A DNA stretch of 32,000 nucleotides from Aquabacterium sp. CECT 9606 (GTDB lineage: Bacteria > Pseudomonadota > Gammaproteobacteria > Burkholderiales > Burkholderiaceae_C). The translations under genes and the position numbers were made by a program. Positions 875-19,645 of this stretch are shown here, piece by piece. The notes under the pieces were generated by a model. It was not told the DNA's origin and ran no database searches. It saw nothing but the letters and a program-made list of their open reading frames with translations. The stretch lies in contig NZ_CAKKNB010000003.1 of the NCBI RefSeq assembly GCF_918741295.1, forward strand, positions 652,668 to 684,667. The letters run 5' to 3'. How positions within the stretch are numbered: the first letter of the stretch is position 1; the number at the start of each line of letters is the position of its first letter.

Positions 875-1390
875 ATGACGAAACCTTACCACCCAGCAGG
901 CAGCTCCCTTGAAAAAACATGCAAAGCTGAACCGAATTCCGCCATTCACGCGGCGAGGCAATTCTCCAACGCCGTGCCTCACAACTTCGACCTGGGCATG
1001 ATTGTGGAATCCATGAGCAGCACAGCGGCAGTAATGCGACTACCCTACCGCAACATACTCATGGGCGACTCGGAAAAAGACTGGCTCTACAGCAGCACCC
1101 TTTACAGCCTAGCGGACGCTGCGTCCGGCATGGCTGTATTTTGCGCATTGAATGAGCTGACATCCATCGCCACGCTGGACATGCGAATTGACTACTTGCG
1201 CCCCACGCCTATTGGCCGCGATCTGTTGGCCAATGCGACTTGCTACCGCTTGACCCGCCAAGTCGCTTTCACGCGCTGCTCCATTTACTTGGCCGATGAT
1301 GACGAGATATGCGCTATCGCCACAGGCACATTTTATTGTGGAAAGCGATCTGCCACGCACACCATCAAAGCCAAGAGAGACTCGATATGA
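875..1390 (+). CDS. PaaI/4HBT-type hotdog-fold thioesterase paralogue (lacks the usual HGG, has YSS)
   Basis: 171-aa ORF. FDLGMIVES...AVMRLPY...DWLYSSTLYSLADAASGMAV...TLDMRIDYLRP fits the PaaI hotdog pattern. Its stop overlaps the next start (ATGA at 1387-1390). Confidence 0.65.
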   Translation: MTKPYHPAGSSLEKTCKAEPNSAIHAARQFSNAVPHNFDLGMIVESMSSTAAVMRLPYRNILMGDSEKDWLYSSTLYSLADAASGMAVFCALNELTSIATLDMRIDYLRPTPIGRDLLANATCYRLTRQVAFTRCSIYLADDDEICAIATGTFYCGKRSATHTIKAKRDSI

Positions 1391-1890
1391 CCCAACGCAT
1401 GAACGCTGTCCTAGAGGCCCTTGCCTCTAACCGCTATCAAGACCTACTTGACGCCATTCCTTATGTTCGCCATTTGGGCATTCGTGTAGAAGGCGAGCAG
1501 GATGCCCGAAAAAGCACTCTTCTCTTCCATCTGCCATTTCGCAATGAGATCATTGGGAACCCTATGCTGCCAGCGCTGCATGGCGGCGTGGTTGGCGCAC
1601 TACTGGAAACAGCCTCGATGATCCAAGTCATTGCCTCTGAGAGGCAGTCACGCATGCCCCGGCTGATTGATTTCTCAGTAGATTACTTGCGCTCAGCGCG
1701 CACGAAAGATTGCTGGGCAGAGTGCAACGTTGTTCGCATGGGCAGCAGCATTGCTGCAGTCAGCGTGCGCTGCTGGCAAGACGATGAGACCGCCCCTATC
1801 GCCACAGCACGGGCTCATTTGTTACTGGTCGAGCCGATGCCACAGCAACACGGCGGATTGCCGATGAAACCCCAACCATTTGATATATAA
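1387..1890 (+). CDS. PaaI/4HBT-type hotdog-fold thioesterase
   Basis: Start chosen at MTQRMNAV (ATGA coupling with the upstream gene). IPYVRHLGIRVE...NPMLPALHGGVVGALLETASM...IDFSVDYLRSA is the canonical PaaI-family core including HGG. Confidence 0.75.
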   Translation: MTQRMNAVLEALASNRYQDLLDAIPYVRHLGIRVEGEQDARKSTLLFHLPFRNEIIGNPMLPALHGGVVGALLETASMIQVIASERQSRMPRLIDFSVDYLRSARTKDCWAECNVVRMGSSIAAVSVRCWQDDETAPIATARAHLLLVEPMPQQHGGLPMKPQPFDI

Positions 1891-1911
1891 ATCAATAAGC
1901 AGGAGCATATC

Positions 1912-3606
1912 ATGCAAATCATTGATATCCCAGATCGCCCCTGGGTGAACTTTCATCAATCACAGCCTGACTTCAATCAAAAAATATTGGGATTGGCCGA
2001 CTTTATCGAGCAGCATGCGAGCGAACGCCAAAAAAAGGCGGCGGCCGAATACCTCGGCGCAACCATAAGCTACGCCGAACTGAATTTTTTGGCAAATAAG
2101 CTGGCCAATGCGCTACGAGACCGTGGCGTGCAGCGCTCGGAGACCATCGGACTGCACCTACCGAATACACCAGAGTATCTTATTGCCCTTGTCGCAGCCT
2201 CTAAGTTGGGCTGCCCAGTAACTGGTGTTTCACCTCTGTTGACCACACCAGAAATTGAACACCAACTTCAGGATGCGGGCGCCCGATTTCTGATTTCAAT
2301 GGAACAAGTTTATACCACGTCCGTGGCACCTGCTGATGGGCGGCTCTCTTTGTTGCGGGGCGTGTTTGTCACCAGTCCCATTGGCATTTTGCCAAAGTGG
2401 AAGCAGCACGCGGCTTATTTTTCTGGAAAGCTGCCGCGCCCAAGTTGGAAACCAATGATCCACACTGCGACCGAAGCGTTCATGCCGGCGGTGCAAAACG
2501 CTTCGGATGCCCACGCCTACGCTTCGGTTGCCGAGGATGAAACTGTATTTATCCAGTATACAGGCGGCACCACCGGAAAGCCCAAGGGGGCAGAGCTCAC
2601 CAAGCGGAATATGTTTGCCAACGGCTTGCAGGCCATGTCCTTCATCGGGGGTGACAGCGGGGATACTTTTGCGTCTGCGTTCCCGTTGTTCCATCAGGCT
2701 GGCCTGGCGATTTCATTGATGGCGTTGCGCGCAGGAGCGCGGCAGTTACTGATTCCGAATCCGCGTGACATTGATTTTTTCATTACTCAGATGAAAAAAT
2801 TCCCTCCAACCATGCTCGGCAACGTTCCTTCTCTCTACCAGATGCTGTTGGAGAAACCAGCATTTCGTGAGATTGATTTTTCGCGGCTACGTGTCGCCTT
2901 TTCAGGGGCTGCACCGTTTGCACCAGAAGGCATCCGTCAGCTTGAGGTCGTTGTCGGTGCCGGCAAACTTTGCGAAGTCTATGGCATGACTGAAACCAGC
3001 CCACTCATCACTATCAACCCACCTGGTCGGACCAAACCCGGCACCGTGGGGATACCACTACCAGGCAGCGATGTGAAAATCATGGACGCGGAAACCGGCA
3101 ACGTTGAGATGCCGGCTGGAGAAGTCGGCGAAATCACGACCTGCGGCCCCAATGTTATGAAGGGTTATCGAGGGCACAGCGAAGCCACTGCCCAGTCAGT
3201 GCGTGAAATCAACGGTAAGCGCTGGATGTACACTGGCGATATCGGGTTTTTTGATGCCGAAGGTTACTTGACCATTTGTGATCGAGCCAAGGATATGCTC
3301 ATTGTTGGTGGGTACAAGGTCTTTTCCGTCGAAGTTGAAAGCAAACTCAAGGAGTTGCCATGCATTGAGCTTTGTGCTTTGGTTGGCCTACCCGATCCCA
3401 ACCGCCCCGGCAACGATATCGTCAAGTTGTATGTGCAGCTTTCGGCCGATTCGAGTTCAGTCAACCGGGATGTTTTGATGGTGCAGATTCTTGACTTCTG
3501 TCGGCAGAACATGGCTCCTTACAAGGTGCCCAAGCACATCGAGTTCATGGCAACGCTGCCACTGACACCTATTGGCAAGCTGGATAAAAAGGCCTTGCGC
3601 AATTGA
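1912..3606 (+). CDS. Medium/long-chain acyl-CoA synthetase (AMP-dependent ligase, AlkK/FadD-like)
   Basis: 564 aa with RBS AGGAG 7 nt upstream. AMP-binding motifs YTGGTTGKPKGA, YGMTE, YTGDIG, GGYKV and the C-terminal PLTPIGKLDKKAL. Confidence 0.9.
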   Translation: MQIIDIPDRPWVNFHQSQPDFNQKILGLADFIEQHASERQKKAAAEYLGATISYAELNFLANKLANALRDRGVQRSETIGLHLPNTPEYLIALVAASKLGCPVTGVSPLLTTPEIEHQLQDAGARFLISMEQVYTTSVAPADGRLSLLRGVFVTSPIGILPKWKQHAAYFSGKLPRPSWKPMIHTATEAFMPAVQNASDAHAYASVAEDETVFIQYTGGTTGKPKGAELTKRNMFANGLQAMSFIGGDSGDTFASAFPLFHQAGLAISLMALRAGARQLLIPNPRDIDFFITQMKKFPPTMLGNVPSLYQMLLEKPAFREIDFSRLRVAFSGAAPFAPEGIRQLEVVVGAGKLCEVYGMTETSPLITINPPGRTKPGTVGIPLPGSDVKIMDAETGNVEMPAGEVGEITTCGPNVMKGYRGHSEATAQSVREINGKRWMYTGDIGFFDAEGYLTICDRAKDMLIVGGYKVFSVEVESKLKELPCIELCALVGLPDPNRPGNDIVKLYVQLSADSSSVNRDVLMVQILDFCRQNMAPYKVPKHIEFMATLPLTPIGKLDKKALRN

Positions 3607-3689
3607 CGAACCAGCGAAGGTGCCCGTACCCAAACACCTGCGTGGTGCGGGTGGCCTTGCTGATTGAAATATGGACCGGAGAAAACCCA

Positions 3690-4364
3690 ATGAATGAACA
3701 CCCGAACTTGGGCACGCTAGCCCCGACGCCACTGATTGACAGCGACCATCCCGATGTGCTCGCTTTCGCAGAACGTCACGCCAAAGGTGCTAACGACCGT
3801 GAGCGAGCTATCGCTCTGTACTATGCGGTACGCGACGGTTTCAAGTACGATCCTTACCGAATTGATCTGTCATCCGACGGGATGAGGGCCAGCCGGGTGA
3901 TCAAGCTGGGTGTCGGCTGGTGTGTGACAAAAGCGACGCTGCTGGCTGCTGCGTCGCGCGCGGCTAGGATCCCGGCGCGTTTGGGCTATTCTGACGTGCG
4001 CAACCACCTGTCGACCGAGCGCATGCGGCAGACGATGAAAACCGACTTGTTTGTATGGCACGGCTATGCCGAAATTTGGCTAGAAGGTGCTTGGGTCAAA
4101 ACCACCCCGGCGTTCAACATAGAGCTTTGTGAGCGATTCGGTCTGCTACCGCTCGATTGGGACGGTCACGCCGATTCGCTCTACCACCCGTTTGATCGAG
4201 AGGGCAACCGTCACATGGAGTATGTACGTCAGCATGGCAGCTTTGACGATGTCCCGTTGGCGGAGATCTCAGCCGCCATTACTAGCACTTACCCTGATTT
4301 GCATGCACTGTCGGTACCAGAAACGAGCTTTGAAGCTGACGTTCTGCGCGAACAATCTCGATGA
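3690..4364 (+). CDS. Transglutaminase-like (papain-fold) domain protein
   Basis: Start at MNEHPNLG behind GGAGA. The core GVGWCVTKATLLAAASRAARIPARLGY...VWHGYAEIWLEGAWVKTTP matches the transglutaminase-core Cys and His positions. The usual Asp of the D-P-T element reads T-T-P here. Confidence 0.7.
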   Translation: MNEHPNLGTLAPTPLIDSDHPDVLAFAERHAKGANDRERAIALYYAVRDGFKYDPYRIDLSSDGMRASRVIKLGVGWCVTKATLLAAASRAARIPARLGYSDVRNHLSTERMRQTMKTDLFVWHGYAEIWLEGAWVKTTPAFNIELCERFGLLPLDWDGHADSLYHPFDREGNRHMEYVRQHGSFDDVPLAEISAAITSTYPDLHALSVPETSFEADVLREQSR

Positions 4365-4458: not shown

Positions 4459-4884
4459 TCACTCCACAGTCAACAGGACCTTCACCGAAGGGTCCACTGC
4501 GCTTTTTTCGATGTAGCCAACTGCATCTGGATTGGAAGCCAAGAGCTTTTTCACTTCGGCGCTGTTAGCAAGCTCCTTGGGCGGCAGCGCCTTACCCGAA
4601 AAGACCAGACGCGACCATATTGCCTTCACTTGTGCGGCCGACTTTCCGGCTACTTTAGTGTAGAACTGTTCCCGGATAGTGGTTGATTCGGATTGATCTA
4701 CCAACACCGCGCTGCCAGCACCAGGGAGTTGAGCATTTTTGCCAAGAAAGAGGCCAGCGGTTTGTTCGGCATTGAGTGCGGTAGCCGGGCTCTTGGCCCC
4801 AACCACGATGGCGACTTGAGCGTGCGCGGCATGAACAGAGCAAACCACTCCAGCTGCGAGCAGCCAATGATTGATTGATTTCAT
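4459..4884 (-). CDS. Small secreted periplasmic-binding-protein-like protein (PstS-like single lobe)
   Basis: 141 aa with signal peptide MKSINHWLLAAGVVCSVHAAHA. IVVGAKSP...LFLGK...IWSRLVFSGK...VGYIE is the pattern of short proteins usually annotated as phosphate ABC substrate-binding-like. Confidence 0.65.
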   Translation of the reverse strand: MKSINHWLLAAGVVCSVHAAHAQVAIVVGAKSPATALNAEQTAGLFLGKNAQLPGAGSAVLVDQSESTTIREQFYTKVAGKSAAQVKAIWSRLVFSGKALPPKELANSAEVKKLLASNPDAVGYIEKSAVDPSVKVLLTVE

Positions 4885-4897
4885 GATAGACCTCAGC

Positions 4898-6127
4898 TCA
4901 GAAGACGAAGTCCACAGCTAAGCTGTAGACATTGACAGGATTGGCACCAAACCCGGGTTTGACATCGGTGAACAGGCCGACGCCACCGGTGTCAACCTTG
5001 ATTCGATCGAATTGCGCTTTTACAGCAAGATTTTTGCGAGCATCCCAGCGTAAACCGACGGCAGCGGTCTTTTGACCAACAGACGCCAGTAAAGTGTTCA
5101 CACCCCCAGCAAGTTGGTCAAGTCCGGGGTCGATACCTGTGGGGATGACTGACGACGAGATCGGGCTATCCTGAGAGAGTCGAGAGATCGTGACATAAGG
5201 CGTCCATACACCATACCGACGCCCAAGCGTCACGTACCAGCCCGTGGTGTCAGCAAAGAAGGCATCGACTCGGCGCTTGGTGTATTCCGCAGTGCCCACG
5301 AAGTCATTCCAGTCAATCGCGAGGCCTATTCCGGAGAAGGATGCGGCCTTGTCACTGGTGTCCAACTCTTCCGCCAAAGGGACAAGGGCCTCCAAACCCG
5401 GGCTTTGGCCTGCTTGACGCAGCCCGGCAAACAAGCCGTCCAAGCCTGAATTGCCACTCAAGTTGAGCTTGCCTTGCATATGTCCCAACCGCAGCGTCAC
5501 GGGCCCATATTCGGCTGAGGCGTTGAAACCTACCCCACTCTTTAGCTTAGCCTCACCCCCGAACATCTTGCCGGAGGTGCTACCCGTAAATACTTGAGCA
5601 TTCACGTTAGTATCGCCAATGCTGCCTTGATAGGAAACATCCACACCATCGAGATGGCTAAACGGAATCTGACCGTAAACATCAACGGGGGGGCGAAGCC
5701 AGGTGTTGGCATAACCGACGTCACGGAAATCGCTGACGAGGAAGTAAGGCGTGCCTGTCCGGCCCACTCGCGCGCTGAAGCCCTTTCCGAGTTTTATCTT
5801 GGCAAAACCCCACTCGAGTTCCGGGTTCCAGTTACCCTCACCGTTGCGTTTGGTGAGTATCTGAGCGGTTAGCGAAAACACGCTGTTCGGGGTGGCTGAG
5901 ACTTGCAAACCAAGCTTGGAGTCAACACCGTAATCGACTTTCTTTCTTGCCCCCCCCTCCTGAGGAAAGATGCCATAGGCTCCAAGATCTGTGTTGGTCT
6001 TGACGGCTCCCACGGTGCCAAAACCGGAGAAGCTGACCATGGATGGTTCAGTGGTTTCTTCGGCATGAACACCACTTGCATGGACGGCAAAGACCGCAAG
6101 TACTAGGGCACTGGACATAATTCGCAT
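4898..6127 (-). CDS. Outer-membrane beta-barrel porin
   Basis: 409 aa with signal peptide ...AVHASGVHA|EE, alternating beta-strand pattern, Gly/aromatic richness, and the C-terminal signature VYSLAVDFVF ending in Phe. Confidence 0.8.
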   Translation of the reverse strand: MRIMSSALVLAVFAVHASGVHAEETTEPSMVSFSGFGTVGAVKTNTDLGAYGIFPQEGGARKKVDYGVDSKLGLQVSATPNSVFSLTAQILTKRNGEGNWNPELEWGFAKIKLGKGFSARVGRTGTPYFLVSDFRDVGYANTWLRPPVDVYGQIPFSHLDGVDVSYQGSIGDTNVNAQVFTGSTSGKMFGGEAKLKSGVGFNASAEYGPVTLRLGHMQGKLNLSGNSGLDGLFAGLRQAGQSPGLEALVPLAEELDTSDKAASFSGIGLAIDWNDFVGTAEYTKRRVDAFFADTTGWYVTLGRRYGVWTPYVTISRLSQDSPISSSVIPTGIDPGLDQLAGGVNTLLASVGQKTAAVGLRWDARKNLAVKAQFDRIKVDTGGVGLFTDVKPGFGANPVNVYSLAVDFVF

Positions 6128-6303: not shown

Positions 6304-6798
6304 TCAAGGCTGGACACCATCCTCCACCATCACGCTGACTTTCTGGAGGGTGGATACGATAGGTCTGTGTGCCCCATCCGACCAATAAACCTTCAGCGTA
6401 TGAGGGCCTATATTGACAGGCAAGTCGAAGACGAAAAGGTACCGATGGTGCCCGAGCCGTATAAGCTGCTCATTCGATGGCATCAAAGACTTGCTGTCTA
6501 CTTCGACATGCAGGTGCGTCCTAACGGCCTGCGAACTCATCGTCAACCGCCGCATGTCGCCAGATGTTTCAAATATCATGGCGAGTTGTTTGCCGACCCT
6601 GGCACCATCCGAAGGCATGAGAATGCGTAGCGGCGGAACCACCATCCCTGCGCTGCCAGTCGCCTGACCTTGACCTAGACGTTCCTTGGTAGGGTGGCTG
6701 TGGTCATGCACATGCAGTTGGTCGGCAGCACCGCCATGCACAAGGGGAGGGGCCAGCATCAGGGCACCAAGCACGACTGCAAACTGGAAGGTCTTCAT
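6304..6798 (-). CDS. Secreted His-rich protein, last gene of the CuMMO operon (DUF4399-like by recollection)
   Basis: 164 aa with a signal peptide ending PPLVHG. The mature N-terminus is GAADQLHVHDHSHP. Later residues RILMPSDGARVG...THLHVEVD...IRLGHHRYLF...GPHTLKVYWSDGAH suggest an Ig-like beta domain with clustered His. It lies 36 nt downstream of copD on the same strand. Confidence 0.6.
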   Translation of the reverse strand: MKTFQFAVVLGALMLAPPLVHGGAADQLHVHDHSHPTKERLGQGQATGSAGMVVPPLRILMPSDGARVGKQLAMIFETSGDMRRLTMSSQAVRTHLHVEVDSKSLMPSNEQLIRLGHHRYLFVFDLPVNIGPHTLKVYWSDGAHRPIVSTLQKVSVMVEDGVQP

Positions 6799-6834
6799 AT
6801 GGATTGAGTCCTTGAACGGCGAGCTGAAATTGAG

Positions 6835-8808
6835 TCAATGAACATGATCGTCAGGGGAAGGTTTGAGCTGAGGTTCAGCATTAAGCTGAACCAGTTCCGG
6901 GAATAATCGATCCAAGTCATCCCAGCCAGACCGATCTTCTTCTGGGATCCAACGTGCCCGGACATAGCCGAAACGGTCAATCAAGAACTCCGCCCTTGCC
7001 CAGTCCATTCCCAGGCGGTCAGGAGCTCCGCGATTGGAAGCGGTGCGCGACAAAAGTTCGTACGCGTCCCAGATTTCCTTGCTTGAACTGCCAAGAACAG
7101 GGAACGGCAGATCTGATGGGGGTGTTACGCCCACCATTGGCACCACCAATAGAACGGCCGTGCGCAGGCTTTGCAAGCGCGGATAACCCGCCACGAGCCT
7201 GCGAATCCGCTCAGCCGACCGCTCATCTCTGTCAAGGAATACCAACAAGACATTGCTGCCCCCCCGGTAGTTCTTGAGTTCGCTGATTTCCGCACTGCCT
7301 TCAATGTAGAAGTTTGGCGCACCTAACCAAGCTTGACCGGAAACAACGCGTGAACTGAGTAACCGCCCTTCAAAGCCCTGAGAAAACGCGCGCAAAAAAT
7401 TGATCAAGTCCCATCGTTCCGAGGTCGACAGCACCTTGCCAAAGCCAGGCATCCCGCTCTCTTGAATACCGTGCGTCAGCCACCAATACACATCGCCTAC
7501 AGTGTGCAGCGCCGTGTGCGGTTGGGTGAGGTTTGCCGGAATTTTGGGAAGCGAAGAGGCTAACGGTCCATCACCGAGACCGCCGCCACCGTGGCAGTGG
7601 ATACAATGCGCCTGAAAAAGCGCTCGTCCCTCCGCAATAGATGCAGTGAGATAAGGAGATTCCGAGCGCCTGTAACTGTCCGGGTAGGCCTTGACGGCCA
7701 GTATCCATGCGAGTGCTACAGCGCTGGTCACGAAGACAAACAAACCTGATTGGCGCAAGGTACGATGGCGACCAAATGTCGTTGTCAACAGACCTACAGC
7801 AAGACAGGCTGCTGCGGTGAGTATCCAAGGGCGTTGCGTAGTCACGATCCATGCCGCATCCAGAGCCCAACGAAATGGCAACCACCAGAACGACGCATCA
7901 TGCAGCGCTGGCGTTGTCTGACCAAGCCACGCCGCGCACCCAAGCACCCCAATTGCAGCAACGAATTCCATCGCAACATGACGTGCAGCCAAACGCGAAG
8001 CCATGGCCAAATTACCGGCCACGCGCAACTGCGGGAGAAAGCCCCTGCGAACACCATTGGCCAGCAATAAAACAACCGCCAAGATGCAAAATTTGGCGAC
8101 CAGCAAGCCACCATATAGCGTACCAAGCAGGTCTCCGGCATTGTTAATGTAAGTGTCGGCTAGTAACGCACCACTCAATACGATGGTGCACATGGCACCT
8201 ATTGCCAGCCAAGAAAAGCGTGTCAGCGCATCCTCAAGCTGGGAGCAAGAAAGACCAGATTGTCCATTTGCAAATGCGCGCACGGTCAGCACCCACAACG
8301 GTAAGGCGCCCATCCAAATGGCCACAGCCAAGACGTGAGCAATATTCAGAACCAGTGTCCAAGACAGTGCTCCGGCTCCGGCTGCGTGCCCCCCCAGTGG
8401 ACCAAGAACCAAGTAAAGGGCAGCAAAGCCCGCACTGATTCGCAAAAAAGATCCATGTAATTGTTCGCGCCGTATTATGAGTATTGACGCCAGCAGCAGA
8501 CAGGAAATAATAGCCCGATAAACCCAAACACGACCAACATGTGTATCGCTCAAAAGCTGATACCAAGCGTTCGTGTTGCCAACAAAACCCCCTAAAATAG
8601 AGATTTGCGCTGTCAGCTTACCAAGATGCGCAAAGACCAATAGAAAGCCGGGCAGCACATACAACAAGACATCGACTCTCTTAAATCGAGAGTTAGGCAG
8701 GCACGTTGCGCTGGGCAAGCATATGTGACGGAAAACTGTCGTGCCGACGACAACTGAGCCAGCCGCCAAGGTCAACCATTGACACAAGGCGGAGATGAAG
8801 CTAATCAA
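6835..8808 (-). CDS. copD: CopD-family polytopic membrane protein fused to a class-I cytochrome c and a Cys-free thioredoxin-fold domain
   Basis: 657 aa. Residues ~1-390 are hydrophobic multi-helix CopD-like. The heme motif CIHCH sits at codons 402-406 (nt 7591-7605), with the distal SGMPGFG Met. Residues ~495-625 (NVLLVFLDRD...FLIDRFGYVRARW) look like a redoxin fold but contain no Cys at all. The start overlaps the copC stop by 8 nt. Confidence 0.85.
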   Translation of the reverse strand: MISFISALCQWLTLAAGSVVVGTTVFRHICLPSATCLPNSRFKRVDVLLYVLPGFLLVFAHLGKLTAQISILGGFVGNTNAWYQLLSDTHVGRVWVYRAIISCLLLASILIIRREQLHGSFLRISAGFAALYLVLGPLGGHAAGAGALSWTLVLNIAHVLAVAIWMGALPLWVLTVRAFANGQSGLSCSQLEDALTRFSWLAIGAMCTIVLSGALLADTYINNAGDLLGTLYGGLLVAKFCILAVVLLLANGVRRGFLPQLRVAGNLAMASRLAARHVAMEFVAAIGVLGCAAWLGQTTPALHDASFWWLPFRWALDAAWIVTTQRPWILTAAACLAVGLLTTTFGRHRTLRQSGLFVFVTSAVALAWILAVKAYPDSYRRSESPYLTASIAEGRALFQAHCIHCHGGGGLGDGPLASSLPKIPANLTQPHTALHTVGDVYWWLTHGIQESGMPGFGKVLSTSERWDLINFLRAFSQGFEGRLLSSRVVSGQAWLGAPNFYIEGSAEISELKNYRGGSNVLLVFLDRDERSAERIRRLVAGYPRLQSLRTAVLLVVPMVGVTPPSDLPFPVLGSSSKEIWDAYELLSRTASNRGAPDRLGMDWARAEFLIDRFGYVRARWIPEEDRSGWDDLDRLFPELVQLNAEPQLKPSPDDHVH

Positions 8809-11053: not shown

Positions 11054-11818
11054 TCAAACAATTTTCCGGATCCAGATCGCCTTCGACCCCAAGTAACCAA
11101 TCCATATCCAGAACCACAAATTAAGGATATTTAGAAAGCCTGCAAAAACTGCCGTCAACGGCGTCACCGCCTCACCAAAGGTACGAAGCGTTGACTGCTC
11201 AATGATGCGCACATATTCAGGAATTGCCGTGCGGATGTATTCATAACCAATTAAATCAGCCACAGTGAGCATCGTGCCATGCAGATTCACTGGCACCATG
11301 AAAGGCGCGAGCAAAGCCCAATTGAGTGGATAAATCAGCACACCAAAAGCGAATCCACCAAATAGGCCCGTCCAAAAAAAACTACCCGTCAACAGTAACA
11401 AACAGTCCAGTATCAAGCCTAGCCCTATATAGGTTGAAGGCCAGACAAAATTCATCGGAAAATCCGCGAACAGATGAAAATTGAGGTAGCGACTGATCCA
11501 AGCGGCGAAGGTCAGGCACAAGATAGACAAGGTTCCACCAAGTGGCAGCCGCAGCTTTGCCCAAAATACATAGGAGAAGACACCTGGCAGAACAGTCAGT
11601 GCCAGAGGGGTTACCAGAGGCCACCAACGACGATCACGCCAATCGACCCAATAATCCCAATCACCAACCAGCAAGGCAAAGTGAAAGCTGAAGATACCCG
11701 CAAACAGCAAGACAACCAGCGGGATGACAAACAAATCCACCTGGATATATGCCCGTTTTTGCTCCTCGGGTGAAATCATACCCGATTGGGCCAATACCGT
11801 ATCCGAATCGCTTGTCAT
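11054..11818 (-). CDS. xmoA: Copper membrane monooxygenase subunit A (PmoA/AmoA homologue)
   Basis: 254 aa. GDWDYWVDWRDRRWWPLVTPL, NFVWPS, YPLNWALLAPFMVPVN and IPEYVRIIEQSTLRTFGEAVTP align with the conserved PmoA/AmoA blocks. RBS AAGGAA. Confidence 0.93.
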   Translation of the reverse strand: MTSDSDTVLAQSGMISPEEQKRAYIQVDLFVIPLVVLLFAGIFSFHFALLVGDWDYWVDWRDRRWWPLVTPLALTVLPGVFSYVFWAKLRLPLGGTLSILCLTFAAWISRYLNFHLFADFPMNFVWPSTYIGLGLILDCLLLLTGSFFWTGLFGGFAFGVLIYPLNWALLAPFMVPVNLHGTMLTVADLIGYEYIRTAIPEYVRIIEQSTLRTFGEAVTPLTAVFAGFLNILNLWFWIWIGYLGSKAIWIRKIV

Positions 11819-12050: not shown

Positions 12051-12821
12051 TCAATTGACTGTTTGCAATTTCTTGGCAGTATCGTCATCGCCATGACCGA
12101 TAACTCTAGTCAACTCGACGATGCGGGTCAACATTTGCACCAGCAAACCTCCAGCCGCGAACGCGGACCACCCAAGCAACACGAATCCCCAGTGGATAGG
12201 CGCCGCGAACAACTCTTCAGCATAAAAAAAAGTGTGCCCCCATTCATTCAATCCGAGATTGGGCATGATCATGATCGGGCCAGCCACCAACAATCCAAAT
12301 GGCAGTGAAATTCGGTTGGCAAACTGCGGCAGTCTTGTGCGCGCATAGATGAAGGCCGAGACGCCAGCGATGATGAACATCGGAATGCCAAAGTAAAATA
12401 GCACTATGTGTGTCGGCGTGAAATCGGTATCGCGCACCGTCACCTGGTGCCAAGCGGCATCAGCTTCCGTGAACACCGAAGCCACGAGGTAAGCGATGAC
12501 AGAGAACAGCAAAATCTGGGCCAGCAGTACAAAATAGCGTCTCAACTCATCCACCGGCTTTAACTGGTCAAGTCGGCGGTCACGCGTCATCAAAAGCCAC
12601 ACACCAATGCTGCACCCCACAAGAGCAAGTACTGGTAGTTGGATATAGAGCAGCCTCATCCAATATTGCTGGAACTCAGGCGAGAAATAGTCTAGCCCGA
12701 CAGTGAATGCAGTTGCATGCTGGTAAATGCGATAACTGCCAAAAACAACAGCAACCACTAAAAGTCCCAAGAAGAATTTAGCCCAAGGGGCCTTCGGTGA
12801 TTTGTAGGCTGATGAATTCAT
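12051..12821 (-). CDS. xmoC: Copper membrane monooxygenase subunit C (PmoC/AmoC homologue)
   Basis: Start chosen at MNSSAYKSPKAPW (ATG 12821) behind AAGGAG, giving 256 aa. VRDTDFTPTHIV and PNLGLNEWGHTFFYAEELFAAPIHWG are the hallmark PmoC/AmoC metal-site blocks. Confidence 0.92.
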   Translation of the reverse strand: MNSSAYKSPKAPWAKFFLGLLVVAVVFGSYRIYQHATAFTVGLDYFSPEFQQYWMRLLYIQLPVLALVGCSIGVWLLMTRDRRLDQLKPVDELRRYFVLLAQILLFSVIAYLVASVFTEADAAWHQVTVRDTDFTPTHIVLFYFGIPMFIIAGVSAFIYARTRLPQFANRISLPFGLLVAGPIMIMPNLGLNEWGHTFFYAEELFAAPIHWGFVLLGWSAFAAGGLLVQMLTRIVELTRVIGHGDDDTAKKLQTVN

Positions 12822-13059
12822 TGCGCAACTCCTTTTGAACGAAAGTGCCCGCCTGCACCAGAGCAAACCATGGCGACAGATGCTTTCGTATGTTGCAGAA
12901 CCCACGTCATCGTTGCTATTAGTAAAATCACTTATGTACTTACCCAGCATTGACGACATCATCGTTACGCCCGAACCTTAAAAGTTACGCGTCACCGCTC
13001 TTTTTTTATTGGGTTCAAATCGTGTATCGCAGATGCATCTATCTTTCATGCTCAACAGC

Positions 13060-14116
13060 ACACCTGGCGACGTTCAGCGTTCCTGAACGTCCTCATCAGG
13101 CCTACGCCGTCTATGGCGACTCGACTTGCGGGCAACGCGCGCGCTATCCCGTCGGGATGAGCGGCATCCCGGTCACCAATGCCTACGACAACTGCTCAAC
13201 AGGCTCTACAGCGCTGTTTTTGGCGCGTCAAGCAGTTGAAGGCGATGCTGCGGATTGTGTACAGGCACTAGGCTTCGAACAAATGAAGCCTAGCGCGCTC
13301 GGCAGCTACTACAACGACAACCCCCTACCTACCCCCGTCGCGCCGTTTGAAAGCGCCCGTGCGGCGCTAGTGGGCTAGCCTGATGTGTGTGTGCCCCTAT
13401 ATGGTCATCTCTTTTGGCGGCGCTGGCATCGCTCACATGGAGAAATACGGCACCAAGGCCATTCGCCATGCTGCAAATAGTCCCGTGGCACTGTTTCGGA
13501 AGGAGGTAACCATGGAAGAAGTCATGAGTTCACCCGCTTTGATTGGGCCTCTGGCCCGTCTGATGGTCTGCCCCCCCACCGGCTGCGGCGCCGCAGTCAT
13601 CGTTTGCTCGGAAGAATTCGCCAGGGCCAACGGACTAGCCCATCGGGTGAAGATCGTCGCCCGGTTCATGACCACCGACACACCCAGCACCTTTGAAGCG
13701 CGGAGCATGATCCAGTTGGTTGGCGGCTATATGACAAGCGCGGCCGCCACCCAGGTTTACACGGTGGCAGGCATTGGCCCAAAAGATGTGAATGTGGTAG
13801 AGCTGCACGACTGCTTTGCCACTAATGAGCCACTGACCTACGAGGCATTTGAACTTGAAATAGCACCAGAGGGTGGCGGCGAAAAAATGGTAGCAGATTG
13901 TGACAACACTTACGGCTGCCGCGTGGTCACCGATCCTCAAGTGGCTTGTTGTCAAAAGGACACCTTCTTTGAGCCACTGGTCTGGCTCAATGCGCCGAGC
14001 TGGTTCAGCAACTCCGGGGAGAAGCAGGCGCTCGCCAAGTGCATGGCGCCAGGGTGGCCTCACAACACAACCTGGGGCTGGGCGGGGCCGGCGTTGTCAC
14101 GCTCGACCAAGCCTGA
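13060..14116 (+). pseudogene. SCP2/Ltp-type thiolase, N-terminally truncated with frameshifts and an internal stop
   Basis: Homology (YGDSTCGQRA...NCSTGSTALFLARQAVE...GFEQM) starts without the first ~60 codons and stops at 13376-13378. It resumes in another frame (FGGAGIAHMEKYGTK...VVELHDCFATNE...DNTYG). The conserved tail is readable only after a further shift near 13930, and it carries an in-frame TGA at 13970-13972: [29 protein letters not shown]...[16 protein letters not shown]. Confidence 0.8.
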
Positions 14117-14127: not shown

Positions 14128-14586
14128 ATGATTGATCCCAAACATATTGGTAGGCAATTGCCGCCTGTGGTCTTTGAAGTGGAAAAAGGCCGATTGCGTT
14201 TCTTCGCCAAAGCCACGGGAGAAACCCGACCGGAATATCTCGACGAAACGGCAGCGCGAGTTGCGGGCCACTCTAGCCTGCCTGCCCCCCCTACATTTGT
14301 CTTCAGTGCCGAGCTTGATGCCGGCAGCATGTTCTCACTGCTCGAAGAATTGCAGGTTCCTTTAACCCAGATCCTTCACGGCGAGCAGGAGTTCACCTAC
14401 CACGCCCCCATCCACGCAGGAGATCTGCTAACCGTGCAATCGTCCATTGCTGACATCTATGCCAAAAAGGGCGGCGAACTCGAATTCATCGTCAAGGACT
14501 CCACGGTTAGCAACCAGCACGGCGGCAAGGTGGTCTCGACCCGTAGCGTCATCGTCGTCCGTCATCCCAGGAAGAAAACGACATGA
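14128..14586 (+). CDS. MaoC-family dehydratase, N-terminal-type hotdog subunit
   Basis: Start at MIDPKHIG, 152 aa. RLRFFAKATGE...LPAPPTFVF...ILHGEQEFTYHAPIHAGD is the pattern of the non-catalytic partner of heteromeric (R)-enoyl-CoA hydratases. Its stop overlaps the next start (ATGA at 14583-14586). Confidence 0.8.
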   Translation: MIDPKHIGRQLPPVVFEVEKGRLRFFAKATGETRPEYLDETAARVAGHSSLPAPPTFVFSAELDAGSMFSLLEELQVPLTQILHGEQEFTYHAPIHAGDLLTVQSSIADIYAKKGGELEFIVKDSTVSNQHGGKVVSTRSVIVVRHPRKKTT

Positions 14587-15002
14587 ACGCTGCACGACTT
14601 GATACTGTGAAGGTTGGAGATGACCTACCTCCGCTGACACTACCTGCCATCACGCGCACGACATTGGCATTGTTCGCTGGGGCCTCAGGTGACCACAACC
14701 CCATCCACATTGACTTCGATTATGCCAAAGCCTTCGGCATGCCCGATGTGTTTGCGCAAGGCATGTTGCCCATGGCCTATCTTGGTCGCCTTCTCACTAT
14801 CTGGTCACCGCAGTCGCAACTGCGCCAGTTCAAGGTGCGTTTCTCCGCGATGACGCCCGTGGGCGCAAGGCTGACCTGCTTCGGCAAAGTGGTAGAGAAA
14901 CTGGAGCTCGACAGCGAAGTGCTCGCCAGATTGGAGATTGCCGTAAGCGATGAGCACGGCGTCACCAAACTTGTCGGTGAGGCGCTGGTCGCTCTAGCAT
15001 GA
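14583..15002 (+). CDS. MaoC-like (R)-specific enoyl-CoA hydratase subunit
   Basis: 139 aa with the hydratase-2 motif GASGDHNPIHID followed by FAQGML. Confidence 0.85.
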   Translation: MNAARLDTVKVGDDLPPLTLPAITRTTLALFAGASGDHNPIHIDFDYAKAFGMPDVFAQGMLPMAYLGRLLTIWSPQSQLRQFKVRFSAMTPVGARLTCFGKVVEKLELDSEVLARLEIAVSDEHGVTKLVGEALVALA

Positions 15003-15126: not shown

Positions 15127-15336
15127 TGACCATCACCAAACCTGATCATCAGTCCATCGAATTGGCTGCTCACACTCATTAACCCTGACCTGATGAAAAT
15201 GATGGAAGCCACCGTGCCGCTGGGTCGCGCCGGCACCCCCACCGAGGCAGCAGGCGCAGTCTATCTGATGTGCATACCCGAATCCGACTACGTCAGCGGC
15301 CAGGTACTGGTCTGCGGCGGCGGCTTTTCGATGTAG
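15127..15336 (+). pseudogene. C-terminal remnant of a short-chain dehydrogenase/reductase (FabG-like)
   Basis: The frame ending at TAG 15334-15336 reads ...NPDLMKMMEATVPLGRAGTPTEAAGAVYLMCIPESDYVSGQVLVCGGGFSM*, a classical SDR C-terminus. There is no Rossmann or catalytic part upstream (stop at 15127). Confidence 0.7.
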
Positions 15337-15347: not shown

Positions 15348-16259
15348 ATGATCTCCAAAGGCCTGCACTGCGCCCGCCACCAAACCAGCAACTGGCACGA
15401 ACACCGCTTTACCGGTGAGGGCGGCATCAGCCTCGCTTACGATGAAGCAGGCGATCCCACTGCCTCACCAGTCATTCTGCTACACGGCGGTGGACAAACA
15501 CGCCACTCTTGGCATCAGACCATGGTGCGTCTTGCCGACGCAGGCTATCATGCCTTAGCTTATGACGCCCGTGGACATGGTGACAGCGACTGGTCAAGTA
15601 CCGGTGATTACAGCCCGGACGCGTTTGTTGCCGACCTGCGGCAGATCATTGCCAGGCTACCTCAACAACCAGCGCTGGTTGGCGCCTCAATGGGCGGACT
15701 AACCTCTTTGGTGGCAATCGGTGAATCTGCAACACCCATCGCCGCAGCCTTGGTTCTGGTGGACATTGCAACCCGGCTGGAGTCCTCTGGCGTGGGGCGG
15801 GTGCTGGACTTCATGCACTCGCATACCGATGGCTTTGCGGCACTGGAAGATGCAGCAGTTGCCATTGCCGCCTACAACCCTCAACGCCCCCCACCAAGCG
15901 ACCTAGAGGGCCTCAAAAGAAATCTTCGCCAGCGAGCCAATGGTCGCTGGTATTGGCATTGGGATCCCCGCCTGCTTGACCACGCGCCACGCAACACCGA
16001 TGGCGAGGCTTTGCTACTTCAAAATCGCCGCGAAGCTGCTGCCCGTCGAGTCCGCACACCCTCCCTGCTTGTGCGTGGCATGCAAAGCGATGTGGTCAGC
16101 GTCGAAGGGGTGCTCGCTTTGCAGGCTCTGATTCCGCAGGCTGAACTGGTACATGTGCCTCGGGCTGGTCACATGGTGGCCGGTGACCGCAACGATGTTT
16201 TCGCAGAAGCTGTCATCGCCTTTCTTTGCCGACATTGCCCAACCCTCAGTGCTTCGTGA
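15348..16259 (+). CDS. Alpha/beta-fold serine hydrolase
   Basis: Start at MISKGLH, 303 aa. VILLHGGGQTRHSW (oxyanion region), the nucleophile elbow GASMGG, and the late AGHMVAGD His. Confidence 0.85.
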   Translation: MISKGLHCARHQTSNWHEHRFTGEGGISLAYDEAGDPTASPVILLHGGGQTRHSWHQTMVRLADAGYHALAYDARGHGDSDWSSTGDYSPDAFVADLRQIIARLPQQPALVGASMGGLTSLVAIGESATPIAAALVLVDIATRLESSGVGRVLDFMHSHTDGFAALEDAAVAIAAYNPQRPPPSDLEGLKRNLRQRANGRWYWHWDPRLLDHAPRNTDGEALLLQNRREAAARRVRTPSLLVRGMQSDVVSVEGVLALQALIPQAELVHVPRAGHMVAGDRNDVFAEAVIAFLCRHCPTLSAS

Positions 16260-16435
16260 CGTGCCCTACCTCAAGTATTCATTGTATTCCGCGCCCGCAT
16301 CGGTGCGCGTGAGCGCCATCAAGAAGCGGGAAGGGTCATCGAGCACATCGCAACCTATCCCGGAGCCATTCTTCTCAACCCGCCATCAATACAAAGTGAT
16401 CGGTCAATTTTGACCGCGCCGACTGGAGACCACCA

Positions 16436-17878
16436 ATGAAGAACGATATAGCGCCCGAGCAACTGATCAATGTCAACGCCGAACACGCCGAAATCGAACG
16501 TGTGTTCGAACGTCAATTGGCTTCGGCGTTGCGACTGCGCTCTTCCACTGCGCATGATCGCTTGGTCAAGATAGAGCAACTCAAGCGTGCTGTGTTGCGA
16601 CGGCGCGAAGAAATCCAGCACGCTGGCGCGCTGGATTTTGGCAAACCTGCGGCAGAAGTCGATCTGACCGAAATTTTGCCGGTGGTAGCCGAGGCGAATG
16701 ACGCACGCCGCCATCTCCGCAAGTGGATGCGCCCTCACCGGGTATTGCCCACTTTGCTGATGTTTGGCACCAGCAGCCATGTGCGGTATGAGCCCAAGGG
16801 GCGCTGTCTGATCATCTCGCCCTGGAATTATCCAGTCAACCTGACTTTGGGGCCGCTAGTGTCAGCCATCGCGGCGGGCAACACAGCGATCATCAAGCCT
16901 TCGGAAATGACGCCGCACCTCTCCGCAGTGATCGTGGAGATTGTGCGGGAAGTGTTCTCTGAGGATGAGGTCGCCATCTTCGAGGGCGATGCCTCGGTGT
17001 CGCAGGTTCTGCTCGATCTCCCCTTCGACCACATTTTCTTCACCGGTTCTCCAGCGATCGGAAAGGTGGTGATGGCGGCTGCAGCCAGACATCTCACCAG
17101 CGTCACATTGGAACTTGGTGGCAAAAGCCCAACCGTGATCGACGAAACAGCTAACCTTGACGCAGCCGCATCGAACCTGATGTGGTCCAAGTTCGTCAAT
17201 AACGGACAGACCTGCATTGCGCCAGACCACGTGTACGTGCATGACTCGGTGAAAGACAAGTTCGTGCAGAGTTGCAAGAAGGCTCTAGAAAAAGCCTTTG
17301 GCGACGCGACGGGCCCGAACTCGGCCCATCGGGCATGCATCGTCAATCAGCGCCATACCGAGCGCATCGTGCGGTTGCTTGATGACGCCAAGGCGCGTGG
17401 CGCGCGCACCCTTGTTGGTGGTGCCTATAACCTGGCTGAACGCTACATTGCGCCAACCCTGCTAGACAACCTGCCTTCCGACGCTGCGATCATGGAGGAG
17501 GAGATATTCGGGCCAGTACTTCCGATCTTTGGCTATCGCGATCTCGACGCAGTGATCGCCGCCATCAATGCTGGCCCGAAACCATTGGCGCTCTACCTTT
17601 GGAGCCATGACAACGCCAGCATCAACAAGGTGTTGCGCGAAACATCATCCGGTGGCGTGTGCATCAACCACAGCGTCGTGCAGGCCCTGCATGGGCGGCT
17701 ACCTTTCGGCGGGGTCAACAACTCCGGCATTGGCAATTCACACGGCGCGTATGGCTTCAAGGCTTTCAGCCACGAGCGAGCTGTCGTGAGAGCACGGCTG
17801 ATGCTAGCTTCCGTTTTCTATCCACCTTACAGCAAACTGTCACGCAGGTTGATCTCAATGGCGTTTCACATAGTGTAG
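16436..17878 (+). CDS. NAD(P)-dependent aldehyde dehydrogenase, class-3/AlkH-like
   Basis: 480 aa. WNYP, ELGGKSP, NNGQTCIAPD (catalytic Cys), EEIFGPVLP and a hydrophobic C-terminal tail. RBS GGAGA. Confidence 0.92.
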   Translation: MKNDIAPEQLINVNAEHAEIERVFERQLASALRLRSSTAHDRLVKIEQLKRAVLRRREEIQHAGALDFGKPAAEVDLTEILPVVAEANDARRHLRKWMRPHRVLPTLLMFGTSSHVRYEPKGRCLIISPWNYPVNLTLGPLVSAIAAGNTAIIKPSEMTPHLSAVIVEIVREVFSEDEVAIFEGDASVSQVLLDLPFDHIFFTGSPAIGKVVMAAAARHLTSVTLELGGKSPTVIDETANLDAAASNLMWSKFVNNGQTCIAPDHVYVHDSVKDKFVQSCKKALEKAFGDATGPNSAHRACIVNQRHTERIVRLLDDAKARGARTLVGGAYNLAERYIAPTLLDNLPSDAAIMEEEIFGPVLPIFGYRDLDAVIAAINAGPKPLALYLWSHDNASINKVLRETSSGGVCINHSVVQALHGRLPFGGVNNSGIGNSHGAYGFKAFSHERAVVRARLMLASVFYPPYSKLSRRLISMAFHIV

Positions 17879-18007
17879 AGAGCGGCTCAGCTCGCTTGAG
17901 TGGGTAAATTCGTGTCTACGCGAACGCAATAGCGGGGCGCCAAATGCCGGACTTGAAATCAGTACGGAAAGACTCTTTTCACATTCAATTTTTCAGGAGA
18001 AAAATCC

Positions 18008-19645
18008 ATGGAATTTGACTACGTTATCGTAGGGGCCGGTTCGGCTGGTTGCGTGTTAGCAAATCGACTTAGTGCAGACCCCGGTGTGCGGGTCTGCCTG
18101 CTCGAAGCGGGCCCATCAGACAACTCGGCGCTGATTCGCACACCGATGGGCGTTTTGGGACTGCTGACCACGCGCTGGTACAACTGGTACTTTAATACTG
18201 AACCCGATGCGCAACTCAATGGTCGCCGCCTGTACTGGCCGCGCGGCAAGACGCTGGGCGGCAGTAGCTCCATCAACGCAATGGTGTACATGCGCGGTAA
18301 CCCCGCAGACTATGACGCATGGGCTGCACAGGGCAACACGGGCTGGAGTTACCAGGATCTGCTGCCACTGTTCAAGGAGCACGAGAACAATGAGCGCGGC
18401 GGCTCGGCCTTCCACGGCACAGGCGGGCCGCTGAACGTGGCAGAAGTGCGCTCGCGCAACCCGCTGTCTACGATGTTTATTGAAGCCGCTCACCAGTGCG
18501 GGATTCCCAAAAACACCGATTTCAACGGAGCGATTCAAGAAGGCGTGGGTTTTCATCAGGTCACACAGAAGAACGGCGAACGCTGGAGCAGTGCGCGAGC
18601 ATTCCTTCACCCTGTCATGCAACGCCCCAATCTCAAGGTATTCACAGATGCCCGCGCGACACGCCTGCTATTCGATGACAAGTGCATCAAGGGTATTGAG
18701 TACGTACGGGATGGTCGCACCGAACGCCTTGAGATCACGAAGGAAGTGATCCTGTCTGGTGGAGCCATTAACTCGCCACATTTGCTGCTGCTCTCAGGCG
18801 TGGGCCCCGAGGCCGAACTGAGCAAGCACGGTATTCCGCAGGTTCACGAGTTGCCTGGCGTTGGGAAAAATCTGCAGGATCATCTGGACATCACCGTCAT
18901 GATCCGGGATCGCAAAAAGCTCGGTATTGGCGTGGCGCTCTCCTTCCTGCCACGTGCGGTGTCCGGTGTTTGGCAATACCTGCGGCGGCGCGAAGGCCTT
19001 CTAGCCAGCAATGTGGCGGAGGTTGGCGGCTTCGCCAAACTGGCACCAGACTCGACGCTGCCCGAAATCCAGTTCCACTTCCTGCCGACGTATCTACGCA
19101 ACCATGGCCGGGATCTCGCCCCAGGCTACGGGGCCACCCTGCACGTATGTCAACTGCGCCCTAAAAGCCGCGGGTTCATCGGGCTCAAAAGTGCCGACCC
19201 AGTGGCTGACCCACTGATCCAGTCAAACTACCTGACTCACCCTGAAGACTGGAGCGAAATGATCGCTGGGCTCAAGTTAGCCAGGAAGATCTTGGCCGCG
19301 CCCGCATTTCGAGACATCAACGATGGCGAAGTGGCACCCGGGTCCGAAGCACAAAGCGATGAGTCATTACGCGCCTACATTCGCGACAAGGCCGAAACCA
19401 TTTATCACCCAGTTGGCACCTGCAAGATGGGTAACGACGCACTTGCCGTTGTCGATGCGCAACTGCGTGTTCATGGTTTGATCGGTGTTCGCGTTGCGGA
19501 TGCATCGATCATGCCCAGCTTGATTGGAGGCAACACGAACGCGCCGACCATGGTCATCGGCGAGAAGTGCGCTCGGGCGATTCTCTCTTCAGTTTCCGTA
19601 TTAGGCCTCGCGCAGGACCTCAACGCAACTGCACGGGGTATTTAG
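18008..19645 (+). CDS. GMC-family flavoprotein alcohol/choline dehydrogenase (AlkJ-like)
   Basis: 545 aa. FDYVIVGAGSAGCVLANRLS (FAD Rossmann), GGSSSINAMVYMRG, HPVGTCKMG and ADASIMPSLIGGNTNAP. RBS AGGAGA. Confidence 0.92.
   Translation: MEFDYVIVGAGSAGCVLANRLSADPGVRVCLLEAGPSDNSALIRTPMGVLGLLTTRWYNWYFNTEPDAQLNGRRLYWPRGKTLGGSSSINAMVYMRGNPADYDAWAAQGNTGWSYQDLLPLFKEHENNERGGSAFHGTGGPLNVAEVRSRNPLSTMFIEAAHQCGIPKNTDFNGAIQEGVGFHQVTQKNGERWSSARAFLHPVMQRPNLKVFTDARATRLLFDDKCIKGIEYVRDGRTERLEITKEVILSGGAINSPHLLLLSGVGPEAELSKHGIPQVHELPGVGKNLQDHLDITVMIRDRKKLGIGVALSFLPRAVSGVWQYLRRREGLLASNVAEVGGFAKLAPDSTLPEIQFHFLPTYLRNHGRDLAPGYGATLHVCQLRPKSRGFIGLKSADPVADPLIQSNYLTHPEDWSEMIAGLKLARKILAAPAFRDINDGEVAPGSEAQSDESLRAYIRDKAETIYHPVGTCKMGNDALAVVDAQLRVHGLIGVRVADASIMPSLIGGNTNAPTMVIGEKCARAILSSVSVLGLAQDLNATARGI

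Follow-up and report, generated by a model that had tools for sequence, protein, structure and literature searches.

Copper-containing membrane monooxygenases (CuMMOs) outside the methanotrophs and nitrifiers are widespread, and their substrates are mostly unproven. One of them is encoded by the xmoCAB genes of Aquabacterium sp. CECT 9606, within the 32,000-nucleotide stretch (contig NZ_CAKKNB010000003.1, positions 652,668 to 684,667 of the forward strand) that was analysed here and is called the window. The question raised by this locus is whether the genes surrounding xmoCAB form a downstream pathway for alkanes and whether they amount to an alk operon in which the CuMMO sits where AlkB would be, as a preliminary description of the window had proposed. 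We found that this alk-operon-like reading was partly supported. The locus, as cargo of a genomic island, probably encodes a modular route from alkane to acyl-CoA that was built from at least three pre-existing modules. The first would be a Nevskiales-type xmoCAB-pmoD-copC-copD operon with the decayed stump of its native divergent operon. The second would be a pair of genes for an aldehyde dehydrogenase (ALDH) and a GMC flavoprotein alcohol dehydrogenase, such as is found beside xmoC in Polaromonas and Rhodoferax and beside CYP153 on a plasmid of Polaromonas JS666, and the third would be a module of two hotdog thioesterase-family genes (TE1 and TE2) and an acyl-CoA synthetase (ACS).

In the proposed route, hydroxylation of an n-alkane by the CuMMO would yield the primary alcohol, from which the AlkJ-like GMC enzyme would form the aldehyde while passing the electrons to quinone, the AlkH-like class-3 ALDH would produce the fatty acid, and the ACS, perhaps tuned by the hotdog pair, would convert the acid to acyl-CoA. 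The host's own beta-oxidation would then complete the route, the thiolase, short-chain dehydrogenase/reductase (SDR) and acyl-CoA dehydrogenase (ACAD) of the island being broken or lost. The order alkane, alcohol, aldehyde, acid and acyl-CoA is drawn from the analogy with AlkJ, which reduces ubiquinone, and with the aldehyde dehydrogenase AlkH (PMC5404194). The genes concerned are the following.

875 to 1390, + strand: TE1, a hotdog (4HBT/PaaI-like) thioesterase-family protein of 171 aa (PF03061, E=1.2e-11)
1387 to 1890, + strand: TE2, a second hotdog thioesterase-family protein (PF03061/PF13622; the open reading frame opens at 1309)
1912 to 3606, + strand: ACS, an AMP-binding, fatty-acid-CoA-ligase-like protein (PF00501, E=2e-83)
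6304 to 9804, − strand: CuMMO accessory block (Pfam CopD/Cytochrom_C/CopC), consisting of hyp164 (6304-6798), CopD-cytochrome c (6835-8808), CopC (8801-9202) and a PmoD-like protein (9199-9804), all on the − strand
9815 to 11044, − strand: xmoB (PF04744)
11054 to 11818, − strand: xmoA (PF02461)
12051 to 12962, − strand: xmoC (PF04896; the matches of the three xmo genes have E=1e-76 to 1e-122)
13088 to 14110, + strand: SCPx-type thiolase pseudogene (tblastn fragments; NCBIfam PRK08256 matches pieces only)
14128 to 14586 and 14583 to 15002, + strand: MaoC_N and MaoC_C, an intact hydratase pair (PF13452, PF01575)
15178 to 15333, + strand: SDR stub, last 52 codons only (86.5% identity to the Stagnimonas SDR, residues 256-307)
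15348 to 16259, + strand: alpha/beta hydrolase of 303 aa (PF00561; start at 15348 taken from homologues)
16436 to 17878, + strand: class-3 ALDH, AlkH-like (in PDB, class 3 and fatty aldehyde dehydrogenases match best)
18008 to 19645, + strand: GMC flavoprotein alcohol dehydrogenase, AlkJ-like (PF00732, E=2e-58; PF05199, E=2.7e-40)

All genes named in the preliminary description were recovered in place by the listing of open reading frames and by Pfam and NCBIfam scans. The xmoCAB genes are intact, with Pfam matches spanning their full length; xmoC probably starts at about 12821 (homologues have 256 aa). TE2 likely starts at the ATG at 1387, which overlaps the stop of TE1, and its homologues are 156-167 aa long with a 4-nt overlap to TE1. 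The start of MaoC_N was likewise placed at 14128 by homologues, those of MaoC_N and MaoC_C having 152 and 139 aa. The GMC protein scores over the NCBIfam PRK02106 cut-off and carries the N-terminal FAD-binding GxGxxG motif (DYVIVGAGSAGCVLANRLS, residues 4-22).

Do the flanking genes belong with xmoCAB? XmoA homologues were collected and 80 loci were taken with 10-kb flanks, 38 with XmoA at least 65% identical to that of the window (close loci) and 42 below 65% (distant loci); these were searched by tblastn with window and comparator proteins, and neighbours were counted within 10 kb of xmoA. An ALDH with at least 50% identity was found in 15 of the 38 close loci, a GMC protein with at least 60% identity in 11, an AlkK-type ligase in 8, a pyrroloquinoline quinone (PQQ) alcohol dehydrogenase in 16, thiolase or MaoC proteins in 7-8 and the alpha/beta hydrolase in 11. 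Each of these was absent (0/42) from the distant loci, where the sole related match was one GMC protein at 47%. The clustering of the flanking genes with xmoCAB exceeds chance; homologues of the ALDH, the GMC enzyme and the beta-oxidation genes adjoin xmoCAB only in the close XmoA clade. The co-occurrence with xmoCAB that the preliminary description had proposed to look for was found, and it is confined to this clade.

Two arrangements recur there. In the Nevskiales type (L014, L110 and L111), xmoCAB-pmoD-copC-copD is divergent from ACS-ALDH-thiolase-MaoC-MaoC-SDR-ACAD-methyltransferase-hydrolase-MAPEG-ACAD-ACAD. In the Comamonadaceae type, xmoCAB-pmoD, with or without a PQQ alcohol dehydrogenase, is divergent from ALDH-GMC-AlkK-type ligase accompanied by a MalT/AlkS-like regulator, and the closest relatives of the window ALDH and GMC enzyme (72-76%) stand in this divergent position beside xmoC in Polaromonas, Rhodoferax, Hydrogenophaga and Acidovorax. 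In two further loci, from Sinimarinibacterium and Oceanococcus (L021:12642-14225 and L025:16016-17560), a multicopper oxidase lies a few kb downstream of the pmoD-like gene and replaces copC/copD.

The possibility that the flanking genes reside at the same locus in relatives lacking xmoCAB was also considered, and no such case was seen apart from JS666 with its CYP153. Among 400 same-family genomes, xmoA occurred in only 2, both of another lineage (XmoA 39-41%), and it occurred in none of the 3 same-genus genomes. The best GMC match in the 400 genomes reached 56%, and two same-genus genomes had none at E<=1e-100. Since the close GMC clade is missing from these 400 genomes, the flanking genes are not resident on the chromosomes of relatives without xmoCAB. 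A different xmoCAB lineage (XmoA 41%) was present in one same-family genome (L118, G371:C1:1034000-1054000), and upstream of its xmoC are genes for a regulator that resembles MalT/AlkS (50% identical to that of Polaromonas) and for an OmpW/AlkL-like protein (29% to AlkL), with no ALDH or GMC gene close by.

For the idea that the CuMMO sits where AlkB would be, it was relatives, and not the window, that gave the strongest support. In plasmid NC_007950.1 of Polaromonas JS666 (L106), genes for ferredoxin, ferredoxin reductase and CYP153, together with a PQQ alcohol dehydrogenase, are divergent from ALDH-GMC-ligase, and all 418 aa of the P450 align with PDB 7ANT (E=2.7e-290). By blastn, this plasmid and a Rhodoferax OTU1 contig (L034) were 94.2% identical over 5.1 kb of ALDH-GMC-ligase and 93.4% over 2.3 kb of the PQQ alcohol dehydrogenase. 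Between the shared blocks lies xmoCAB-pmoD (3.45 kb) in Rhodoferax and 86 bp in JS666; the CYP153 operon (3.7 kb) is found only in JS666 of this pair. One cassette of about 94% identity carries either xmoCABD or CYP153, each as a clean indel. The JS666 enzyme hydroxylates octane, and a mutant of it hydroxylates butane (PMC8479775); it is a characterized terminal alkane hydroxylase (PMC8479775; Scheps et al. 2011, cited in PMC5187867). Both hydroxylase types can also share one neighbourhood, as in a Polycyclovorans metagenome-assembled genome (MAG; L019) in which no more than 10 kb separates a Nevskiales-type xmoCAB from a homologue of CYP153 with 72% identity to the P450 of JS666.

How close is the back end to a true alk operon? 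The comparator was plasmid pCP7-41 of Pseudomonas sp. 7-41 (NZ_CP089552.1), found by tblastn of the GMC protein against plasmids; its cluster contains alkB, two rubredoxins, ALDH, GMC, ligase and OmpW-family genes, and alkS and alkT are also present. Over full length, the window ALDH and AlkH share 51.7% identity and the GMC protein and AlkJ share 55.1%, and the GMC protein is the reciprocal best match of AlkJ within the genome. The next match to AlkJ there has 39.6% identity, so that the window GMC protein is the only AlkJ-type enzyme of the host. To this extent the identification of the ALDH with AlkH and of the GMC enzyme with AlkJ held, as homology with the H-J order kept. The hydrophobic tail attributed to the ALDH was found as a C-terminal FxPPY...RLI tail conserved with AlkH, but its hydrophobicity is weak (Kyte-Doolittle mean of at most 0.69 over 19 residues), and a specific sister relationship to the Alk counterpart was recovered for neither protein. 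In the trees, the window ALDH and the window GMC protein are each sister to a Comamonadaceae clade linked to xmo or CYP153 (support 100/99 in both cases), and they have 72% and 75% identity, respectively, to the Polaromonas/JS666 cassette proteins. AlkH falls outside a group that contains the window ALDH and three host ALDH paralogues. AlkJ shares a well-supported subfamily with the window GMC protein, but there it forms a polytomy together with a GMC clade that is widespread in Comamonadaceae. Neither tree makes AlkH or AlkJ the specific sister, and an alk operon with its AlkB replaced was therefore rejected. The pair appears to belong to the same enzyme subfamilies as the alk enzymes and to be a look-alike and not a descended alk operon; the same subfamilies, the same H-J order and trees without a specific sister do not demonstrate descent.

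The remaining alk equivalences did not survive. The ACS, which had been equated with AlkK, has only 24.8% identity to the AlkK of pCP7-41, and this identification was rejected, since ligases that are truly of AlkK type are encoded in the Comamonadaceae cassettes (53% to AlkK; missing here) and elsewhere in the genome (54%, C1:963521, outside the window). Homologues of OmpW, MalT/LuxR and rubredoxin reductase were not found in the window. The porin and the outer-membrane barrel listed below, which had been assigned an AlkL-like uptake role, are unrelated to AlkL/OmpW and are not conserved with xmoCAB, and the barrel is broken; both were rejected as AlkL equivalents by homology.

The position of alkK appears instead to be taken by the third module. 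The nearest relatives of the ACS (78%) occur in TE1-TE2-ACS-ALDH operons on short contigs, and others (73-74%) in ACS-ALDH pairs without xmo. In Nevskiales-type loci an ACS adjoins xmoC directly, and the window ACS is orthologous to it (59% identity to the Stagnimonas protein). TE1 is 75% identical to TE1 of the TE1-TE2-ACS-ALDH operons L124-L126 and 92% identical to that of L129, a 7.1-kb contig (Logan SRR24975957) whose two blocks match the window with 95-97% identity and in which ALDH-GMC, a 686-bp spacer and TE1-TE2-ACS are contiguous and co-directional. This contiguity and the contexts of the ACS homologues link both hotdog proteins and the ACS with the ALDH-GMC unit and place the ACS in the alkK position, where, to judge from its relatives, it would play the role of AlkK without being of AlkK type. 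In L129 a different gene precedes the ALDH and no transglutaminase gene follows the ACS. The earlier assignment of the hotdog proteins and the MaoC pair to acyl-CoA handling was not supported for the MaoC pair, which is a leftover of a decayed beta-oxidation operon.

That decay is evident on the side of the CuMMO. The window XmoA is 84-88% identical to that of the Nevskiales-type loci (85-88% for Stagnimonas and Panacagrimonas), compared with 70-72% to Polaromonas and Rhodoferax, and the accessory order hyp164/CopD-cytochrome c/CopC/PmoD is the same in the Nevskiales loci L014-L020, L077 and L110. The MaoC pair is 54-78% identical to xmoC neighbours in L014-L020 and L077. The alpha/beta hydrolase, a conserved member of the Nevskiales xmo-flanking operon, is 65-74% identical to its counterparts in the same loci. 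When the intact Stagnimonas thiolase was used as a tblastn query, the window copy fell into three pieces (frames 2/3/2) and lacked the first ~50 residues. No match in the window was found for the ACAD or the methyltransferase, which come next after the SDR in relatives, and the same SDR stub was found in L127/L128. The window is a hybrid, in which a Nevskiales-type xmo operon and the stump of its divergent operon are followed by a Comamonadaceae-type ALDH-GMC pair. An assembly artefact was considered and rejected, as the layout recurs with 99.97% identity in two metagenome contigs of independent origin. Four traits set this window apart: the Nevskiales/Comamonadaceae chimera, the decayed state of the native beta-oxidation operon, the replacement of AlkK by TE-TE-ACS and the coexistence with AlkB systems.

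The rest of the first 23 kb, whose GC content is 47-58% as against ~63% for the 5.1-Mb genome, contains the following features.

3603 to 4364, + strand: transglutaminase-core protein, overlapping the ACS stop (PF01841)
4459 to 4884, − strand: small PBP-like open reading frame (PF12849, 21.2 bits, under the Pfam cut-off of 27)
4898 to 6127, − strand: putative outer-membrane porin (Porin_4, 22.9 bits, under the cut-off of 27)
19796 to 22169, + strand: MetA-family (PF13557) outer-membrane barrel, split by an insertion sequence (IS); the halves match profile positions 14-121 and 124-241
20734 to 21696, − strand: IS5-family transposase inside the MetA barrel

The putative porin has a signal peptide and a C-terminal Phe, and a PDB search with it gave no match. 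The PBP-like open reading frame, the porin, the MetA barrel and a CHI-like gene were absent from all 80 related loci, and the porin is regarded as a local addition. Homologues of the transglutaminase-core protein were found four genes from a 74% ACS homologue (45%, L108) and near xmo in L035 (44%); the gene recurs loosely with the ACS family, and its link to the pathway is uncertain. An 11-nt imperfect inverted repeat (20698-20708 and 21756-21766) was seen around the IS5-family transposase gene, and the element is single-copy in the genome, with a 73% relative at one end of the C1 alkB cluster. A further IS5/IS1182-like transposase gene (2-280, − strand; L010:18823-19965) crosses the left edge of the window and lies between TE1 and a set of genes for an AlkB-like protein. 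In the right part, an SbcC/Rad50-like protein (27591-30251) is matched by homologues from 77 plasmids of Burkholderiales, of which 42 are typed as conjugative and two are Polaromonas records; its best match is on a Piscinibacter gummiphilus plasmid (47%). The presence of such homologues on conjugative plasmids fits the view that the right part of the window is the backbone of a conjugative element.

Is the CuMMO the only enzyme that could feed this back end? It was borne out that no AlkB, rubredoxin or P450 is present inside the window, but the conclusion that the CuMMO is the only candidate hydroxylase fails beyond it. The genome has 14 FA_desaturase-family genes. Two of them are canonical alkB genes, at C2:697143 (followed by rubredoxin) and C1:1208634, with 49% and 46% identity to the pCP7-41 AlkB. 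Three AlkB-like proteins are 32% identical to AlkB and 69-74% identical to one another, each with a Fer2-FNR reductase and an AraC regulator. The nearest set (G000:C3:647682-651076; L010:15015-18409) lies ~2.3-5 kb to the left of the window with an IS between, the right end of the stated interval being ~1.6 kb from the first base of the window; its 443-aa hydroxylase, which matches AlkB in PDB 8F6T (E=9e-38), is accompanied by a XylA-like Fer2-FNR reductase and a divergent AraC gene, with IS elements and an integrase fragment at the bounds. Paralogous sets (66-74%) are located at C1:1210746-1214055, adjoining a canonical alkB, and at C2:545784-549156. This architecture is closer to the xylene monooxygenase system XylMA/XylS than to AlkB/rubredoxin, and no NCBIfam model naming these proteins was found. 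A TE1-/TE2-like hotdog pair (35% and 28%; L120:4346-5199, G000:C1 ~1204.3-1205.2 kb) was observed 3.6 kb upstream of the chromosomal alkB. No CYP153 was found in the genome. A PQQ dehydrogenase was also not found there, in a search whose control was positive, and this agrees with the earlier expectation of a substrate other than methane. A search of the genome for multi-haem proteins and HAO gave no match, but its control was silent too.

Because the window GMC protein is the only AlkJ-type enzyme of the genome, the back end may also serve the di-iron enzymes, and several observations weigh against a dedicated CuMMO pathway. The host AlkB-type systems, two canonical and three AlkB-like, could use this sole AlkJ-type dehydrogenase. 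IS elements bound the patchwork cluster and interrupt it, three genes are broken or deleted, the channel is broken as well, and the TE-TE-ACS module lies on the far side of the xmo operon. The cluster has no regulator and lacks both the AlkS/MalT-type regulator and the AlkK-type ligase seen in the Comamonadaceae cassettes. A scan for consensus promoters and terminators was uninformative, giving fewer sites than shuffled sequence. Moreover, CuMMOs of this clade are listed as of unknown function in PMC8630023.

These points lead to an explanation that we consider unlikely: the clustering would be an accident of island assembly, ALDH-GMC and TE-TE-ACS would mainly serve the AlkB-type hydroxylases of the host, and the CuMMO would have another substrate or act in co-oxidation only. 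The AlkB-like set with its reductase and AraC gene just beyond the left IS, the two canonical alkB genes, the sole AlkJ-type enzyme, the TE1/TE2-like pair near the C1 alkB and the marking of the joins by IS elements and pseudogenes all speak for it. Nevertheless, AlkB was found within 10 kb of xmoA in none of the 80 related loci, the closest relatives of the ALDH and the GMC enzyme lie divergent to xmoC in four genera of Comamonadaceae, ALDH and ACS accompany xmoC in Nevskiales, and the identical hybrid layout persists in other samples. The persistence of this layout in independent metagenome contigs also speaks against the idea that the locus is decaying and largely silent cargo of a conjugative island without a present physiological role. 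The thiolase pseudogene, the SDR stub, the deleted ACAD and methyltransferase, the split channel and the deviating GC content fit such an idea, but xmoCAB, pmoD, copC, copD, ALDH, GMC, TE1, TE2, ACS, the MaoC pair and the hydrolase each have the full length of their homologues, and the lost functions can be supplied by the host, so that we regard it as quite improbable.

It is just as doubtful that the natural substrate of the CuMMO is something other than an n-alkane, such as an alkene, a ketone (for example acetone) or another small hydrophobic compound, with the flanking genes processing a different oxidized product. CuMMOs are promiscuous and include ethylene- and acetone-oxidizing members (PMC6215863; PMC8630023), and plain alkane oxidation has no need of the methyltransferase, the alpha/beta hydrolase and the MAPEG protein encoded in the native Nevskiales operon. 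However, no epoxide, coenzyme M or Baeyer-Villiger genes were seen in the flanks by Pfam and NCBIfam scans, and the back end is interchangeable with that of CYP153, a characterized terminal alkane hydroxylase (PMC8479775). The modular alkane-to-acyl-CoA route thus remains the reading that we prefer, with n-alkanes as the presumed substrates and with xmoCAB and the flanking genes possibly co-regulated. The gene data do not fix the chain length, and the same type of cassette serves a medium-chain CYP153. Related Betaproteobacteria studied by Rochman and colleagues in 2020 reportedly assimilated ethane and propane and transcribed xmoA on propane, and the same type of cassette is said to accompany CuMMOs in such ethane- and propane-assimilating bacteria. 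We tentatively suggest a further scenario, in which a plug-and-play exchange of hydroxylases is underway: a Nevskiales CuMMO operon may have been grafted onto a Comamonadaceae AlkH/AlkJ-like back end and TE-TE-ACS on a conjugative island, with redundant beta-oxidation genes being shed and the back end shared with the di-iron enzymes. As the host already has AlkB enzymes, the copper enzyme would in this case extend the alkane range, for example to gaseous C2-C4 alkanes.

The idea that CuMMO-bearing Betaproteobacteria use alkanes is not new and has already been published; xmoCABD clusters of alkane-utilizing Betaproteobacteria are treated in PMC8630023 and PMC9213486. The present comparison adds that genes for alcohol, aldehyde and acyl-CoA enzymes repeatedly accompany the close XmoA clade, that a nearly identical back-end cassette takes either a CuMMO or a characterized CYP153 alkane hydroxylase, and that a Nevskiales/Comamonadaceae hybrid circulates on mobile DNA. 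Taken together, these three observations make gene context a usable predictor of function for this clade, and they name concrete gene sets for the bioconversion of gaseous or medium-chain alkanes.

Compared with known systems, the window cluster shares with the OCT-type alk operon the logic of the pathway, the H-J order and the level of similarity given above for ALDH (51.7%) and GMC (55.1%), whereas the AlkB, rubredoxin, AlkK-type ligase, OmpW-type AlkL, AlkS and AlkT of that operon are lacking. With the Nevskiales-type CuMMO loci (Stagnimonas, Panacagrimonas, Polycyclovorans and Nevskia MAGs; L110/L111) it shares the pmoD-copC-copD/cytochrome c-hyp164 tail, the divergent thiolase-MaoC-MaoC-SDR...hydrolase genes (65-78%) and the ACS (59%). 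The operon of those loci is intact and has no GMC gene; the window has a broken thiolase and SDR, no ACAD or methyltransferase, the Comamonadaceae-type ALDH-GMC pair in place of the native ALDH and an ACS located elsewhere. The JS666 CYP153 cluster differs in that its hydroxylase is a P450 with ferredoxin and reductase, and it also has an AlkK-type ligase, a PQQ alcohol dehydrogenase and a LuxR-type regulator; it resembles the window in its ALDH (72%) and GMC (75%) cassette, in its location on a conjugative Burkholderiales element and in adjoining a terminal alkane hydroxylase. Finally, the clusters of Polaromonas sp. AER18D-145 and AET17H-212, Rhodoferax OTU1 and the Hydrogenophaga and Acidovorax MAGs have an AlkK-type ligase, a MalT/AlkS-type regulator and a PQQ alcohol dehydrogenase that are missing in the window, which in turn has beta-oxidation remnants between xmoC and ALDH and an XmoA of only 70-72% identity to theirs. 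They have in common with it xmoCAB and a pmoD-like gene, divergent from ALDH and then GMC, and the window ALDH (72%) and GMC protein (74-76%) are sister to their clade.

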